This document shows, one piece after another, positions 734 to 52,605 of a stretch of 64,000 bases of DNA (its first letter is position 1; each line of letters starts with the position of its first letter). The position numbers were made by a program, and so were the translations under genes. The notes beneath the pieces are model-generated. The model made no database searches. It saw nothing but the letters and a program-made list of their open reading frames with translations, and was not told the DNA's origin. The stretch comes from an uncultured Candidatus Saccharibacteria bacterium (GTDB lineage Bacteria > Patescibacteriota > Minisyncoccia > Phycocordibacterales > UBA9973). Location of the stretch: the NCBI GenBank assembly GCA_964602465.1, contig CAZRQQ010000001.1, forward strand, positions 253-64,252, written 5' to 3'.

Positions 734-847
734 TTCTGAATATAGTATTCTCAAAATCCACGCGTAATTTTCTGCTGAAAATTCGCTATGCTCGGGTAAG
801 TTAGCCCTTGCGCAATGCATTTTTCGAACACCATATTCAGAATTATC
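729..847. repeat. 15-bp perfect inverted repeat closing an 89-nt spacer (candidate structured intergenic element)
   Basis: Arms gataattctgaatat (729..743) and atattcagaattatc (833..847). Inner bulged hairpin at 762..786. Left arm overlaps the ruvB stop codon. Confidence 0.8.
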
Positions 848-860
848 TTTACTTTTAATC

Positions 861-885
861 TTCTACTAACTACTATCTAAGTACT
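861..885 (+). repeat. Half copy of the TAGT-rich palindromic element, abutting the ruvC ATG
   Basis: ttctactaactactatctaagtact matches the promoter-proximal arm of the copy at 23078..23110 (TTCTACTAACgACTATCTAcTTACT) at about 22 of 25 positions. Confidence 0.6.
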
Positions 886-15812: not shown

Positions 15813-16514
15813 ATGCATACCATTTGGAATACCCTTATTTACAATCCTATCTACAACGCGCTCGTTTGGATCGCGCAGCATGTGACGATGCAGGACGTGG
15901 GACTTGCGGTGATCGTGCTTACGGTTGTCATCCGCTTCATCCTCATGCCGCTTTCCAAGAAAAGCATCCGAAGCCAGTACGCAATGCGCATGCTCGAGCC
16001 CAAGATCACCGCTATCAAGGCACGCAAGCTTTCAAAAGAAGAAGAAGCAAAGGAAACATTTGCGCTCTACAAATCCGAAGGAGTCAACCCATTTTCTGGC
16101 TGTCTCTATCTCCTCATCCAGCTCCCCATTCTCTTTGCACTCCTCTATGTCTTCCAAAACGGTGTGTATCAACCGACGCATCTCTATAGCTTCCTCAGTG
16201 CTGAGGGACTCAAAGAAACACTCCTCAATATCCTCGACATCACGAAGCCTTCGATTGTGCTCGCTGTGCTCGCCGGTGTGACGCAGGGTATCCAGGCATT
16301 CATCATGCCCAAACCTCCTACTTCCGGCGCTGAAGGATTCCAAGCGCAGTTTGCCAAGAGTATGTCAGTGCAGACGAGATATGTGCTCCCTCTCATTATT
16401 ATCTTTGCTGCAACTAAGTTCGCTGCCGCAGTTTCCCTCTACTGGACGATTACCAATATCTTTTCTATCGCACAAGAGCTCTACTTTAGAAAGCAGTTCA
16501 AGGTCAGTCAATAG
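15813..16514 (+). CDS. yidC: YidC/Oxa1-family membrane protein insertase (short form)
   Basis: LMPLSKKSIRSQYAMRMLEPKI...YKSEGVNPFSGCLYLLIQLPILFALLYVF...YWTITNIFSIAQ. Confidence 0.9.
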   Translation: MHTIWNTLIYNPIYNALVWIAQHVTMQDVGLAVIVLTVVIRFILMPLSKKSIRSQYAMRMLEPKITAIKARKLSKEEEAKETFALYKSEGVNPFSGCLYLLIQLPILFALLYVFQNGVYQPTHLYSFLSAEGLKETLLNILDITKPSIVLAVLAGVTQGIQAFIMPKPPTSGAEGFQAQFAKSMSVQTRYVLPLIIIFAATKFAAAVSLYWTITNIFSIAQELYFRKQFKVSQ

Positions 16515-16521
16515 TAATCAG

Positions 16522-16572
16522 GTAGTAGTTAGTAGGAACAAAAGATTAACGTTTATGTTTTCTACTAGCTAC
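16522..16572. repeat. TAGT-rich palindromic element, copy A (convergent yidC / secretion-block junction)
   Basis: Arms gtagtagttagtaggaac and gttttctactagctac are imperfectly complementary. Shares the TTCTACTA core. Confidence 0.6.
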
Positions 16573-16588
16573 GTATTGACCGCTCTAC

Positions 16589-20508: not shown

Positions 20509-22317
20509 CTACGAATTCTGTTCGCTAAACTCTTTCTTTGCGGCGCGGATGGAAATGATTTGCGAAGGATCTGATGTAATGATTTGGTCTTCGGTGTAGG
20601 ATGCGATGATTTTGATCGCGACGTGTTTGAGACCTGCGAAAAAGATGCCTTCCCCTACTCCGCTTTCAAGGAGTAAAAACTTTTCTTCGTCAGTGAGGTT
20701 GAAGGTTTTTTGCAAGACGTCCATGGTGGACGGTGACTGTTTGAGGAGGAGTTGGATTGATGAGTTGGTGACGATTGGGACGCCATAGGGACTTTTCATA
20801 AAGTCGCCCACGTCCTGGGTGATTGTACAAAGCCCGAGATAGTATTTGCGGCCGCGCTTTGCGATCGAGTACAGGAAGCTTGCAGTGTCGTCTGACTTCA
20901 TCATCCACCATGCCTCATCGACGACAAGGAGACGCTTCTTGAGTTCCTTGCGCACTGCGTTCCAGATGAAGTGCGTCACGATATACATCGCTGCTGGCTT
21001 GAGGTCGTCTTCCATGTCGCGCACTGAGAAGACCACAAACTTTTTGTTGATGTCGACATTGGTCGGTTGGTTGATGAAAGTCGCCCATGAGCCGTGGGTG
21101 TACTTGGTAAGACGCTGGAGGATTGATTCAGTCCCTTCCATGCCGCCGAGCACCATTTCAAAGTCAGAGAGAAGTGGCGGTTCGATTGTTGCAAAGTTGC
21201 TATCCGCAGTGATGTCTTTGAGACTGTACGTTTCAGTGATCGCGCGATCGATGAGTGAATCTTCTTCGGGGGTAAGGCCGCCGAGCATAATGCGAAAGAG
21301 TCCAACGAGGTTGATCACATTGGTACGAAGGACGTCTGCCGGAGATTCGTCAACGCGCGGGATTGGTAAATCAAAAGGGTTGATATGGTTGTCAGATGAA
21401 AGCGAAATGTTGAAGTAGCGTCCGCCGATCGCTTCTGCGAGATACTCATATTCACGTTCCGGGTCGATCACGATGACGTCAGTATCAAACATGAGTGTAC
21501 GAATGATCTCGAGCTTGGTCGCATAACTTTTACCTGCACCGGATTTGGCAAAGATGATGGAGTTGTAGTTTTCGAGTGAGAAGCGATCAAAGATCACAAG
21601 AGATGAGTTGTGGCGATTGACGCCATAGAGGATACCTTCATCTCCGGTGAGATCAAACGATACAAACGGAAACATACTCGAGATGGGTTCTGAATTGAGC
21701 TTCTGTGTGATACCAAGCTTGTCAGTGCCAAGCGGGATCACACTCTTGAAGCCGTCTTCTTCTTGAAAGAGTGCGGGCTTGATGTAGATCATCTTGCCTT
21801 CGAGCATGCTCTTGATCTCGCTTTCAGTGCGGAAGAGGTCGTTCTCATTTTCGGCATAGATCGAGATATAGAAACCGACGTTGAACATTTTCTCCTGTGC
21901 CTGGGTGAGGTTGTCACGGAGTTCCTCGAGGTCTTGGTATGCGGTGTCGAGCATTGGGTCGCGTACCACCCCTTTTTGCTGACGGACAATGATCTGACTT
22001 TCGACTTCGGCGATCTTCTTTTGAAAATGTTTCAAGAGCTCGGCAGTTTCGATTGGGTTGATATAAATAGAAACGTCAAAAATCTTGTCGAGGTTGATGA
22101 TGGGAGTAAACCAGTTGTCCGTAAGGTAGCGTGGGTATGAAATGACAAAAAAGGTGCGCACGATCTTATCCCCAATGCGCATGGACTTAGGTGTGATCTC
22201 GATCGCAGACGGCGCGATCTTGTCGGAGAGTTCCATCTGCGCCCATTCATATACTTCGGACGGAAGTACGGGAAGTGTCTTATCATCTTTTTTCTTACTG
22301 GAACCAAAGAGACTCAT
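20509..22317 (-). CDS. virB4: VirB4/TrbE/PrgJ-type type IV secretion ATPase (C-terminal about 600 aa)
   Basis: Walker A FAKSGAGKSYATK, Walker B RLLVVDEAWWMM, and IGDKIVRTFFVISYPRYL typical of Gram-positive VirB4 proteins. Confidence 0.9.
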   Translation of the reverse strand: MSLFGSSKKKDDKTLPVLPSEVYEWAQMELSDKIAPSAIEITPKSMRIGDKIVRTFFVISYPRYLTDNWFTPIINLDKIFDVSIYINPIETAELLKHFQKKIAEVESQIIVRQQKGVVRDPMLDTAYQDLEELRDNLTQAQEKMFNVGFYISIYAENENDLFRTESEIKSMLEGKMIYIKPALFQEEDGFKSVIPLGTDKLGITQKLNSEPISSMFPFVSFDLTGDEGILYGVNRHNSSLVIFDRFSLENYNSIIFAKSGAGKSYATKLEIIRTLMFDTDVIVIDPEREYEYLAEAIGGRYFNISLSSDNHINPFDLPIPRVDESPADVLRTNVINLVGLFRIMLGGLTPEEDSLIDRAITETYSLKDITADSNFATIEPPLLSDFEMVLGGMEGTESILQRLTKYTHGSWATFINQPTNVDINKKFVVFSVRDMEDDLKPAAMYIVTHFIWNAVRKELKKRLLVVDEAWWMMKSDDTASFLYSIAKRGRKYYLGLCTITQDVGDFMKSPYGVPIVTNSSIQLLLKQSPSTMDVLQKTFNLTDEEKFLLLESGVGEGIFFAGLKHVAIKIIASYTEDQIITSDPSQIISIRAAKKEFSEQNS

Positions 22318-22343
22318 TGCCTCAGTAGTATACCGTAGGAGTT

Positions 22344-22424
22344 AGTTAGTAGATAGTAGTTAGTTGTTAGTAGAAATACGCACGATATCCTTCTGTGTCT
22401 CCTACAGACTACTATCTACTTACT
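22344..22424. repeat. TAGT-rich palindromic element, copy B (between the two VirB4-like ORFs)
   Basis: Arms agttagtagatagtagt (22344..22360) and actactatctacttact (22408..22424). The right arm contains the stop codon of 22416..23057. TATACT (22327..22332, minus strand) lies 9 nt before ATG 22317. Confidence 0.75.
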
Positions 22425-23057
22425 ACTCACTGCCTGGGTAACGGTGTCGCCAGGGTTAAATGTTTTGTACAAAAGCTCAATCACCTCTTCAGTGCCGAGC
22501 TGTGCAACGCGAAGCCCGACGCGTGAAAGTCCTTGTTCGACGACACTCACCCGCTCTTCGAGCTGAGTACGCTGCTCTTCAAAGTCAGTGATGCTCTGCG
22601 TAGTCTCGGCAGATCGTTTATTGAGAAACGAAAGCATTTTGCCCAACCCCTTTTCTTGGCTCAAGATCGGCGGGATGTACGGAATGATCACAAAGAAACT
22701 CTTGCGCATGATGTTGACCTGATCAGTGAAACTCTGAATGAACTGAATGTATTCACGGGTCTGTACCTGAAGCAAAGGCTCGGTCTGTTCTTTGAGGCGA
22801 TTTTGAAGCGTCAGTATATATGGGCGAACGTCATAGCGGCGTGACTGGATGCTGATCTGTATCGGGAAGTCGAGTGTGTTGAGAAAGCTTTGAAACTGCG
22901 CAAGGGTCGCACGCTGCTCGTCATAGGATTTGAGTGAGAGGTTGATCGAAGAGACAAGCACGGCCATTGCAAGCGTGCCGTCTTTCATGACGATGATACC
23001 GTCGCGGACTTCTTTGACAGGGACAAATTGTTGTGCGGGTGTTCCGAGATTTGCCAT
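22416..23057 (-). CDS. Protein resembling the N-terminal domain of Gram-positive VirB4 ATPases (213 aa)
   Basis: QQFVPVKEVRDGIIVMKDGTLAMAVLVSSINLSLKSYDEQ...FLNTLDFPIQISIQSRR matches, from memory, the N-terminal segment of PrgJ/TcpF/Orf16-class proteins. Confidence 0.55.
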   Translation of the reverse strand: MANLGTPAQQFVPVKEVRDGIIVMKDGTLAMAVLVSSINLSLKSYDEQRATLAQFQSFLNTLDFPIQISIQSRRYDVRPYILTLQNRLKEQTEPLLQVQTREYIQFIQSFTDQVNIMRKSFFVIIPYIPPILSQEKGLGKMLSFLNKRSAETTQSITDFEEQRTQLEERVSVVEQGLSRVGLRVAQLGTEEVIELLYKTFNPGDTVTQAVSSK

Positions 23058-23077
23058 TGCGTACAGTATAGCAAGTT

Positions 23078-23147
23078 AGTAGTAAGTAGATAGTCGTTAG
23101 TAGAAACGTTTTTGTGATCTCCTACTAACTACTATCTATTTACTACT
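23078..23147. repeat. TAGT-rich palindromic element, copy C
   Basis: 26-nt arms agtagtaagtagatagtcgttagtag (23078..23103) and ctactaactactatctatttactact (23122..23147), 24 of 26 complementary. The right arm encodes ..SSK-stop of the PrgI-like gene. Confidence 0.8.
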
Positions 23148-23546
23148 TTCTGATTTAGGGTCGATAACGTCGAGGCTCCAGGAGAGTGTTTTGAGTTTGC
23201 TTTCGGTAAGGCCGCTTCTGCTTTGACTTGCAGTTGCTTCGGGAACTGTCTTTTGGGGAGCCTTTGGGTCTTGCTTGTGCCAAAGGTAGAGTCGTGAGCG
23301 CGTGTAAAACTTGATGAAGGATTCGACGACGTTGATAAACGGCTTGTCGTTGTATTTGAAAAATGTCAGCGCGAGCGCAAACCCGGCAAGCGCAAATGCA
23401 ATCGGAAGCGCGATGAGGATTGGAAGAAACTTAAACGTAAGGTACACAAGCCCTGCTCCTCCAGCGAGATAAATGAATTGCCGAAACGTAAACGGTCCAA
23501 AGACTTTGTCTTCGATATCAATGAATTGCGGAACCTTGAACTGCAT
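23136..23546 (-). CDS. PrgI-family (VirB3-like) type IV secretion membrane protein
   Basis: MQFKVPQFIDIEDKVFGPFTFRQFIYLAGGAGLVYL plus two TM helices. Sits upstream of the VirB4 genes. Confidence 0.7.
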   Translation of the reverse strand: MQFKVPQFIDIEDKVFGPFTFRQFIYLAGGAGLVYLTFKFLPILIALPIAFALAGFALALTFFKYNDKPFINVVESFIKFYTRSRLYLWHKQDPKAPQKTVPEATASQSRSGLTESKLKTLSWSLDVIDPKSESSK

Positions 23547-23567
23547 GAAGTCAGTATACAGTAGTCA

Positions 23568-23629
23568 GCTAGTAGTTAGTAGTAGAACGCAATGATTGGT
23601 TGCGCTCTACTATCCACACACTACTTACT
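23568..23629. repeat. TAGT-rich palindromic element, copy D (more diverged)
   Basis: Inner stem gtagaacgcaa/ttgcgctctac (23582..23592 / 23600..23610). Outer TAGT-rich arms. Right arm contains agtaagtag, which encodes ..SK-stop of 23621..24187. Confidence 0.6.
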
Positions 23630-24187
23630 GCCGTCTATCGGCTCTAGGTACGGGTCAACTTTCTTGGATGCATCGGATGCGGGGATTGCTTCAGCTAGAG
23701 GTTTTGCCTGCCCCGCGGAGCCTTGGCGAAGTGGGGGTTGTACCGCCGGCGTTTCGGTGTATACCCGCTTAGTTGGTGTAAGGGTTATGGGGGTCGTGAA
23801 GGTTTGTGACATGCGAGCAATACTGTCGGAAGATACAGATTTTGCAGGAACGATGCTTGGAGCTAGAGAATCCATCTCGCTGCTCACTTCTATAAGAAGC
23901 TGAAGTTCATCAATAACCTTTTCTTGGATAATAGTCTTGATTTTATTTTTTGTTTCTATGCTTATCGGTAGTCCATCAATATAACCAACGACTTCTTCAA
24001 GAGTACTTGTACCGAGCAGATAAAACGTTACATCGTTGTATATGTGTTCTGTTTGTTCTGAATTATTGAGAAGTGTACCAATTTCTGAAACAACCTTTTC
24101 TAAGCCTTCTTCAAATATAAAGTCACTCACTTCTTGTGGGAGTTCTTCAATATTGTTTTCTATTGTATTTCCAAGATCGTTATTCAT
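23621..24187 (-). CDS. Acidic hypothetical protein (188 aa)
   Basis: Intact ORF. Its start is 1 nt after the stop of the upstream gene. Contains the GC-rich 30-mer. Confidence 0.5.
   Translation of the reverse strand: MNNDLGNTIENNIEELPQEVSDFIFEEGLEKVVSEIGTLLNNSEQTEHIYNDVTFYLLGTSTLEEVVGYIDGLPISIETKNKIKTIIQEKVIDELQLLIEVSSEMDSLAPSIVPAKSVSSDSIARMSQTFTTPITLTPTKRVYTETPAVQPPLRQGSAGQAKPLAEAIPASDASKKVDPYLEPIDGSK
23707..23736. repeat. GC-rich 30-mer repeat, copy 1 (inside a CDS)
   Basis: cctgccccgcggagccttggcgaagtgggg is 26/30 identical to 32562..32591. Confidence 0.85.
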
Positions 24188-49896: not shown

Positions 49897-50238
49897 AGAA
49901 TGATTCAGCAATTTTAATGGTTAGTTGTACTGCAAATACGGGATCACGATATTTAACATATAGAATTGCCTGACTAACGATTCTTTTGATCATGGATGTG
50001 CATTTGCATGCAGTATAGCATTTCCTGTTCGTTACGCGGTCCTTTTGACAGAAGCGAAAACGGCATTTCCTTTGTTTTTGAATACACTCTTTTTGCGTAA
50101 TTTCCGAAGTCTTTTTCGGATTTTTTTGTGTTTACTCATATAGAACAAATTTGATCCGATTGAGTAAAGCAAATTTCCTACTTCTTGGCTAGGTCTTGCT
50201 TAGACATCCGATGTCTATACAGAGGTTCAACCTCTGGG

Positions 50239-52580: not shown

Positions 52581-52605
52581 ATTTAGACCTCCGGCGTTTC
52601 AGTGG

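Follow-up and report, generated by a model that had tools for sequence, protein, structure and literature searches.

The PF05635 family (23S_rRNA_IVP) comprises four-helix-bundle proteins and is also known as the S23p or Avd family. In the intervening sequences of 23S rRNA that bear an open reading frame (ORF), as in Coxiella burnetii and Leptospira, a gene of this family lies in the loop of a long stem of terminal inverted repeats, with tandem heptamers directly before it; the gene is dispensable and decays, and present or past mobility of the element has been suggested (PMC4990558). In C. burnetii, the stem measures 28 bp, the heptamers before the S23p start are GACAGAT, and the element is cut by RNase III (PMC4990558). 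A second group of described elements consists of intergenic heptamer repeats, including TAACTGA in Beggiatoaceae, cyanobacteria, and Bacteroidetes (PMC4679880), GGGNATC in Xanthomonas and Nostoc (PMC4692102), and four-unit heptanucleotide elements in Geobacter metallireducens (PMC2700814). Here, we describe three hairpins that resemble both groups. They lie in a 64,000-nt stretch of DNA (the window; assembly GCA_964602465.1, contig CAZRQQ010000001.1, forward-strand positions 253 to 64,252) from an uncultured bacterium of the candidate phyla radiation (CPR), and they separate consecutive genes of a conjugation/secretion cluster. With a probability of roughly 0.7, we read them as gene-less members of a family of hairpin cassettes linked to PF05635.

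The palindromes fill exactly the three gaps 22318-22415, 23058-23135, and 23547-23620. On the coding (-) strand, these junctions lie between the genes for a 188-aa protein and a PrgI-family protein (site 1), between PrgI and a 213-aa protein (site 2), and between the 213-aa protein and a VirB4-type ATPase (site 3). The first-pass annotation, which was made from the letters of the window alone, had reported three related palindromes at consecutive junctions, and both the coordinates and the sequences are as it described them, including the cores GTTAGTAGAAA and (T/C)CTACTAAC. Each gap reads, on the coding strand, ..AGT AGT AA(A/G) TAG, a G-type arm, a loop of 7-25 nt, a C-type arm, TATACT, 6-9 nt, and ATG. 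Element 1 (site 1; 23547..23637, (-) strand; dG -32.2, z -5.2) has a G-type arm at ~23596-23630, which reaches into the last codons ..DGSK and the TAG stop of the upstream gene, and a C-type arm at ~23560-23592, with an inner stem of 23580-23592 / 23600-23612 and TATACT at 23553-23558. Element 2 (site 2; 23058..23150, (-) strand; dG -31.5, z -7.4) is the best copy, with arms of 26 nt each (23122-23147 / 23078-23103) that are 92% complementary, as had been reported, around the loop gatcacaaaaacgtt; its stem contains the PrgI stop codon and the codons ..ESSK, and its TATACT stands at 23065-23070. Element 3 (site 3; 22318..22438, (-) strand; dG -35.3) has a G-type arm at ~22398-22433 that takes in ..VSSK and the TAG stop, a C-type arm at ~22344-22376, and TATACT at 22327-22332. 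The three upstream proteins do end in ..AVSSK, ..SESSK, and ..DGSK, with agtaa(g/a)tag at the stop, and TATACT, claimed to stand 6 to 9 nt before the next ATG, was measured at 9, 7, and 6 nt for sites 3, 2, and 1, respectively.

The arms are built with TAG at a 7-nt period. Each holds about four heptads, (T/A)TAGTAG opposite CTACTA(A/T), and an arm can be read as TTAGTAG TAAGTAG ATAGTAG TTAGTAG paired with CTACTAA CTACTAT CTACTTA CTACTAA; the second C-type unit also reads CGACTAT. Across the copies of this genome, GTCAG / CTGAC ends often close the arms, the final C-arm unit is often CTAC-TAACTGA-CTC, and several solo copies have a common loop-proximal GGA(A/G)ATCAC. Since the 7-nt unit holds TAG and 7 = 1 mod 3, stops fall in all frames: all three frames are closed in 15 of 23 arms in the G-type reading vs 1 of 23 in the C-type reading. 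The same property of TAACTGA repeats was pointed out by MacGregor (2015). In their tandem 7-mers, their stops in one orientation, and their fixed position relative to stop and start codons, the arms match heptamer repeats of the TAACTGA kind. As a separate observation on arm length, a relative outside the genus (G021, C2:157981-158094; locus L025) has a tandem array of eight 14-nt units AGATAGTAGTAAGT, equal to 16 heptads of one type, between a canonical terminator and a gene end, so that arm length can expand greatly.

These elements form a family within the genome, which is 0.70 Mb in size, of Nomurabacteria type, in 48 contigs, 45% G+C, and 96.85% complete (G000 in the genome comparisons). 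The family was collected by density scanning and by an nhmmer profile built on the arm; the profile found 23 arms at ~19 loci. Gene junctions account for 10% of the genome, yet every one of the 23 arms lies at such a junction; two arms were first scored as coding because a crude ORF caller had stretched gene starts. The loci comprise 8 full hairpins, 5 G-type arms alone, and 6 C-type arms alone. Every full copy folds into a long imperfect stem (dG -22 to -35 kcal/mol, z -2.3 to -9.9). All five G-only arms begin at most 4 nt after a co-oriented stop codon, several with an ordinary GC-rich terminator and T run downstream, while all six C-only arms stand just upstream of a start codon; two of the genes behind them look, from their first residues read by eye, like RuvC and ribosomal protein L11. 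Within the window, a solo C-type arm, cttctactaactactatctaagtact, lies at 843..885 on the (+) strand directly upstream of a 166-aa gene that its first residues, read in the same way, suggest to be RuvC-like. The weaker copy that the first-pass annotation had placed at the yidC junction is also real, being a hairpin at 16512..16588 (dG -22.9) between convergent yidC and a 421-aa gene, assigned to no strand. The pattern TCTACTAAC, with at most 1 mismatch, occurs 22 times in the window vs 9.1 +/- 2.8 times in shuffles, and 22 was reached in 0 of 100. An Rfam search over the whole window returned five tRNAs only and nothing at the elements.

The comparison with relatives covered the orthologous secretion region in 20 genomes of the same genus. 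At site 2, nearly all relatives without an insert have 1-5 nt between the genes (e.g., TAA ct ATG), with exceptions of 8 and 17 nt; there, the genes are coupled and lack TATACT in nearly all cases. Site 1 measures 1-50 nt in relatives, and site 3 measures 20-48 nt where readable, with its own TATACT-type box in nearly all. The same comparison at secY -> adk, elsewhere in the genome, found a 12-54-nt gap in 17 of 20 relatives, most with TATACT-N6-8-ATG (the other three junctions were unreadable in this way), while in this genome a hairpin of ~70 nt is wedged between the stop and the pre-existing box. The elements are therefore inserts and not resident regulatory sequence, and the suggestion that they are insertions resembling miniature inverted-repeat transposable elements (MITEs) is borne out to the extent that most genomes of the genus lack them at the orthologous junctions. 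Two side observations concern secY-adk: G062 (L069) has a different insert there, 141 nt long and rich in TCGATCGA, and G002 (L082) has a C-arm remnant only.

A 16-mer from the arm, AGATAGTAGTTAGTAG, was searched with at most 2 mismatches, the same pattern reversed serving as the control. Across the 51 genomes of the genus, it is frequent (3-26 matches) in nine: 26 matches in this genome, 12 in G011, 11 in G002, 9 in G046, 6 in G054, 4 in G032, and 3 in G059, with a weak presence in G055 and G033 (3 matches each, all with 2 mismatches). The others have 0-2, the level of the reversed-pattern control.

Filled and empty sites are distributed in a manner that points to turnover. A tree was built from PrgI and the 213-aa protein. 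In it, G007, with sites 1 and 3 filled, is sister to G017, which has neither the gene nor an AAGTTAT-type hairpin, on branches of 0.016 and 0.066. G011 and G041 are nearly identical in the two proteins and have a site-1 hairpin in common, but at site 2 G011 reads GATCCTAAAAAATAA tt ATGGCA, and G041 has ~470 bp in which two arms enclose a 114-aa gene and TATACT follows; the junction alignment of this pair is 82% identical, with the coding flanks visibly closer. Both contrasts suggest a recent gain or loss of elements. This genome belongs to a well-supported clade of nine, of which three are filled (this genome, G002, and G046) and six are empty. A tree that groups the three filled genomes is not rejected (approximately unbiased test, p = 0.37), so the element may have entered site 2 once, in their common ancestor, and later lost its gene in this lineage. 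The "empty" site 3 of G017 (L044) contains a mini-palindrome, gagtagtaaactttctactttc, perhaps the remains of a TAGTAG-type element, so that some of the sites counted as empty may be decayed copies.

The link to PF05635 comes from copies that carry a gene between their arms. At site 2 of G002 and G046, arms of the window type (GTAG) surround a 115-aa gene that matches PF05635 at 129-133 bits; the C-type arm encodes its last residues, ..LT(S/T)Y, and is followed by TATACT-N6 and the ATG of the 213-aa gene. The arms at this site read AGTAGTAAATAGATAGTAGTTAGTAGGA in this genome and GTAGTAATTAGATAGTAGTTAGTAGGA in G002, and in both the PrgI protein has gained the extension SxSS(K/N) before its stop. 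In the window copies, no PF05635 gene lies between the arms, and the loops span 7-25 nt. Sixteen further elements with a PF05635 gene between arms were found. At the three junctions, gene-bearing copies also comprise site-1 copies with other heptad arms in G007, in G054 (inverted), and, outside the genus, in G027, G021, and the Paceibacterota genome G068; the site-2 copy of G041 with AAGTT arms; and a site-3 copy in G056, again with other heptad arms. G011 and G041 have a gene-less hairpin of the AAGTTAT type at site 1, as does G007 at site 3, and these hairpins match the outer arms of the gene-bearing copy at site 1 of G007, AAGTTATCAAGTTTGTAAAG ... ACTTTATAACTTGC.ATAGTATACT; this common outer sequence indicates that solo and gene-bearing forms at one junction are homologous. 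The distance between the Shine-Dalgarno-like GGAG atop the first arm and the start of the PF05635 gene is not consistent among the gene-bearing copies.

Arm type and protein lineage agree. Mapped on a tree of 16 PF05635 proteins, the seven arm types can be explained by six changes, the fewest that seven types allow, and the agreement holds within G021, a single genome with five arm types. The AAGTT-type proteins form one clade (support 99), and a clade with support 90 unites the GTAG-type proteins with the only PF05635 gene of the present genome (C14:11245-11607, 120 aa). The latter has CTAGC-type arms (C14:11209-11624; ACTAGCT TCTAGCA ACTAGCG ... GCTAGGT GCTAGCA GCTAATA GCTAGAA) and lies between two co-directional genes. 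Gene and motif also keep company across genomes: a PF05635 gene above the Pfam cut-off is present in 4 of 4 motif-rich genomes vs 2 of 27 others among 31 relatives, and in 5 of 9 motif-rich genomes vs 3 of 42 others in the genus. An observation in its own right is that nine of the ~45 PF05635 genes examined sit in the three junctions around PrgI of the CPR secretion cluster (L040, L053, L063, L059, and L219 at site 1; L027, L034, and L050 at site 2; L054 at site 3). Their genomes belong to at least four families, and the genes have five arm types and include one inverted copy, forming a hot spot.

Beyond the genus, the exact 16-mer was found in at least 119 contigs of Bacteroidota, cyanobacteria, several CPR groups, Chloroflexota, and others. 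A random 16-mer would match a few hundred times in such a collection, so the contig count alone means little and it is the context that counts. Among the matches listed, 120 of 132 are intergenic, vs 14% intergenic DNA at those loci; 63 lie in arrays of at least five units, 41 are matched by an inverted partner at a typical distance of 30-180 nt, and 101 have the G reading after a stop codon or antisense just upstream of a start, with 7 showing the reverse only. Among 13 distant genomes picked for the exact 16-mer, 10 hold PF05635, vs 1 of 14 standard controls, which were unmatched, and six of those 10 have GTAG-type arms on a PF05635 gene; this association is supportive only. As a side observation, the TAGTAG hairpins of Bacteroidales (L155, L146, L096, and L177) have a conserved loop motif, CCATACGG(C/T)A, and the loops of the CPR copies differ.

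Set beside the rRNA intervening sequences introduced above, the family has the same long stem of terminal inverted repeats, the same tandem heptamers directly before a PF05635 gene in the loop, and a gene that can be absent, and the genome has an RNase III gene (C21:5493-5888), RNase III being the host enzyme that cuts the stem in the rRNA case. It is unlike them in that all 23 arms here stand at junctions of protein-coding genes rather than in rRNA helices, that the three window copies are gene-less, that the elements overlap the upstream stop and at one site bring a promoter box, and that ~19 loci with one arm type occur in a single genome. On this basis, the elements are probably relatives of the rRNA intervening sequences. 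The likeness to the intergenic heptamer repeats lies in the 7-nt units, typically about four per array, in the placement between co-oriented genes with the sense strand just after stops or just before starts, in forward stops in all three frames and arrays that overlap upstream stop codons, and in a scatter over phyla that suggests horizontal spread without a known mechanism (PMC4679880, PMC4692102, PMC2700814). The C-arm CTAC-TAACTGA-CTC even holds the TAACTGA unit. However, the published arrays are mostly direct rather than paired as inverted arms, and those papers name no gene family and show no filled and empty orthologous sites.

MITEs that carry expression signals offer a third comparison. 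The Correia elements of Neisseria, for example, can carry promoters with them and, once co-transcribed, can fold into stems sensitive to RNase III. In common with MITEs, the present elements have terminal inverted repeats, are short palindromes at junctions in many copies, and vary in presence between relatives. They differ in that no target-site duplication was seen at two filled/empty pairs and no parent encoding a transposase is known, in that the gene-bearing form encodes a four-helix bundle and not a known recombinase, and in the heptad periodicity of the arms. A full-text literature search returned no paper linking PF05635 genes to heptamer arms outside rRNA, and a CPR study lists 23S_rRNA_IVP inside rRNA insertions only.

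The first-pass annotation had further proposed that the elements create gene boundaries, supplying the stop codon, the -10 box, and the start codon. The comparison of relatives divides these claims. At empty sites, PrgI ends in ..IDPKK, ..DPKQL, or ..DPNKK, whereas with the element present it ends in ..DPKSESSK (this genome), ..DPKSGSSN (G002), or ..SESSN (G046), which indicates that the element supplies the last three or four codons and the stop. Element-free PrgI orthologues therefore lack the SK ending (..DPKK and ..DPKQL), whose presence in them would, by the first-pass annotation's own criterion, have counted against the proposal, and the boundary claim stands for the upstream 3' end. It fails for the start codons, since ATGGCA and ATGCAGTTC are kept at empty sites and the ATGs thus belong to the resident genes. 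The supply of a stop codon is clear for TAGTAG-type copies only; at site 2 of G041, the insert may lie exactly between the resident TAA and TT-ATG.

The -10 box likewise has two sides. The genome contains 404 TATACT sites, and in 103 cases an ATG that begins an ORF of 60 aa or more follows after 6-9 nt. A TAyAnT box (mostly TATACT) precedes the start codon at this distance in 228 genes, with T-TG-n ahead of the box and no -35 consensus. This layout is, as judged from sequence, the predicted signature of leaderless transcripts from extended -10 promoters, a reading based on the established spacing between -10 box and transcription start. The genome-wide occurrence of TATACT-N6-9-ATG shows that the -10 box with its start codon is not a feature of the repeat, and at sites 1 and 3 and at secY-adk a TATACT-type box predates the insert. 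At site 2, however, TATACT occurs at leaderless distance only with the element, in four occupied genomes and with two arm types, so that the proposal that the element brings its own box holds at this site. A scan for consensus promoters and terminators found no canonical site at the elements.

The genes around the elements form part of a Gram-positive-type conjugation/secretion cluster at 17.9-27.6 kb of the window, on the (-) strand. The 188-aa gene (23621..24187), whose last codons overlap element 1, gave no match in a Pfam search. The PrgI-family (VirB3-like) gene (23136..23546; 136 aa; PF12666, E 7.7e-11) has elements 1 and 2 on its sides, and the 213-aa gene (22416..23057) has elements 2 and 3; downstream of element 3 lies the gene for the VirB4/TraG-type P-loop ATPase (20509..22317; 602 aa; PF19044, E 4.4e-25). 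The cluster, all of it on the same strand, also includes genes for a 1136-aa membrane protein and for a 514-aa protein with lytic-transglycosylase and pilin-like parts. The only public runs with this sequence are two activated-sludge DNA metagenomes, whose contigs agree and show no variants; one odd joint within the 213-aa gene, from a diverged metagenome contig, was disregarded.

A course of events can be sketched for these elements. The window copies would either have lost the gene or have spread without it. On the strand of the upstream gene, stops fall in two or three frames of the first arm, so that the protein ends within a few codons, and the far arm with its edge resembles -10 boxes. 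At site 2, the element brings TATACT to leaderless distance from a start that was formerly translationally coupled, and the insert would thereby turn coupled genes into separate units without killing them. Read-through RNA, or the 3' end of the upstream mRNA, would be expected to form a stem of ~24-29 bp. By analogy with the rRNA intervening sequences, the host's RNase III might cut this stem, a tentative suggestion to which we give somewhat less than even odds. Alternatively, the stem may stabilize the 3' end of the upstream mRNA, as the stems of repetitive extragenic palindromic sequences (REPs) do.

The explanation that competes best with a PF05635-linked family is that the heptamer-array hairpins are independent repeats, generated by slippage or recombination or serving as protein-binding arrays, and that PF05635 genes are later settlers that home into matching loops, in which case the window copies never had a gene. 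Gene-less heptamer arrays are, after all, described in Beggiatoaceae, cyanobacteria, Bacteroidetes, Xanthomonas, and Geobacter. Several of our own results also weigh against the PF05635 reading, and some of them favor this alternative directly. None of the 132 exact TAGTAG arrays, among the matches listed, has a PF05635 gene within 700 nt, from which it follows that most arrays are gene-less and that the gene could be a secondary settler in existing hairpins. No GTAG-armed PF05635 gene is present in this 96.85% complete assembly despite its ~19 TAGTAG loci, and the GGA(A/G)ATCAC of several solo copies was not found in gene-bearing copies. At the borders of the two cleanest filled/empty pairs (G011/G041 and G007/G017), there is no target-site duplication, and the closest relatives have only ~80% protein identity, which leaves the TAGTAG insertion borders fuzzy. 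No movement was seen, and no enzyme or transposase was associated with the element. Sense and antisense folds are equally stable, with similar G-U counts, so the folds give no sign of selection on the RNA of one strand. Nonetheless, the perfect agreement of arm type and protein lineage, even in G021, would require either co-transfer as one unit or very specific homing, and solo and gene-bearing forms at one junction have the same outer arms and the same extension of the upstream protein. We thus consider independent repeats unlikely, and we continue to favor the PF05635-linked family as the source of the window copies.

A function that evolved in place is less probable still. In this explanation, the hairpins would be resident regulators of the secretion operon, fixing the ratio of its products through termination, attenuation, or processing. 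The succession of three strong stems within a single operon, with a stop codon before and a promoter after every one, would suit such a role, as would the copy between convergent genes, where a bidirectional terminator is expected. Yet the stems are not conserved across the genus, the same junctions in most of the 20 genus genomes have the genes coupled or 20-50 nt apart with no element, and the same sequence stands at unrelated junctions, such as secY-adk and upstream of the ruvC- and L11-like genes (read by eye). As for termination, which the first-pass annotation had offered as a role for the hairpin, the stems are composed mainly of A, T, and G and lack a T run behind them, and the scan reported no terminator at the elements. 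Because the stems have no U tract and canonical terminators follow the array in four to five other copies of the genome, a terminator role is unlikely, and resident regulation as a whole is very unlikely.

REPs and bacterial interspersed mosaic elements (BIMEs) are extragenic GTAG/CTAC palindromes in 3' untranslated regions that can stabilize upstream mRNA, and a conserved GTAG is a hallmark of REPs. The GTAG within the repeat unit here, together with one PF01797 Y1_Tnp gene in the genome (C15:186-869), could be taken to mean that the hairpins are REP-type palindromes moved by a REP-associated tyrosine transposase (RAYT), an IS200/IS605-like Y1 enzyme. The arms, however, are heptad arrays of 28-30 nt and not GC-rich REPs of 20-40 nt, and they differ from REPs and BIMEs in length, composition, and periodicity. 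Moreover, the Y1_Tnp gene is flanked not by TAGTAG arms but by another palindrome, TAGACCTCCGACGTCTA, which forms a small family of its own, and it is present in 14 of 31 relatives without tracking the TAGTAG motif, G011 having the motif and no Y1_Tnp. An origin through such an enzyme is thus highly improbable. Separately, a second palindrome family, T(T/A)GAGACCTCCGACGTCTATAA, was noted in the window at 50201-50217 and 52584-52600, and elsewhere at C15:165-920, C4:893, and C6:10800; its copies flank the RAYT-like Y1_Tnp gene, and one lies inside it. Integron attC sites were rejected for the wrong order of core sites and because the flanking genes are core secretion genes; HutP- or TRAP-like binding of UAG repeats and DnaA-trios were further readings that were considered and set aside. 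That the pattern is merely low-complexity, AT-rich sequence has a negligible chance of being correct: the units are indeed simple and TAG-rich, but the motif exceeds shuffles, the scan of the genome places every arm at a junction, the arms pair as inverted repeats with z down to -9.9, and the reversed-letter control gives 0-2 matches per genome vs 26 here.

A broader proposal is that heptamer-array hairpins and PF05635 genes are one self-propagating system, in which each protein lineage recognizes its own 7-nt unit and spreads gene-bearing and gene-less copies into the boundary between stop codon and promoter of transcribed genes. We regard this as possible but doubtful. If it is true, the element, with an array that closes any reading frame and a far arm that supplies -10-like boxes, would be a portable gene separator that splits coupled operon genes into leaderless units, and the orphan heptamer arrays found between genes in cyanobacteria, Bacteroidota, CPR bacteria, and others would be explained. 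The protein of the rRNA intervening sequences would gain a function, and the repeated filling of three secretion-cluster junctions by different arm types would reflect targeting and not chance.

Heptamer arrays have been known for decades in cyanobacteria, Bacteroidetes, Xanthomonas, Geobacter, and sulfur bacteria without an origin, a partner, or a function, and the PF05635 protein of rRNA intervening sequences has been equally orphan. This locus ties the two together. The tie rests on gene-less, gene-bearing, and empty states at the same three junctions within one genus, on close genomes that differ by whole elements, and on an insert that rewrites gene ends, replacing the stop and the C-terminus and, at one site, adding a predicted leaderless promoter. 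To this, the locus adds a within-genome family of ~19 gene-less loci with one arm type and a bias, seen repeatedly, toward three junctions of the CPR secretion cluster. For annotation, it means that C-termini and operon structure beside such arrays are element-derived.

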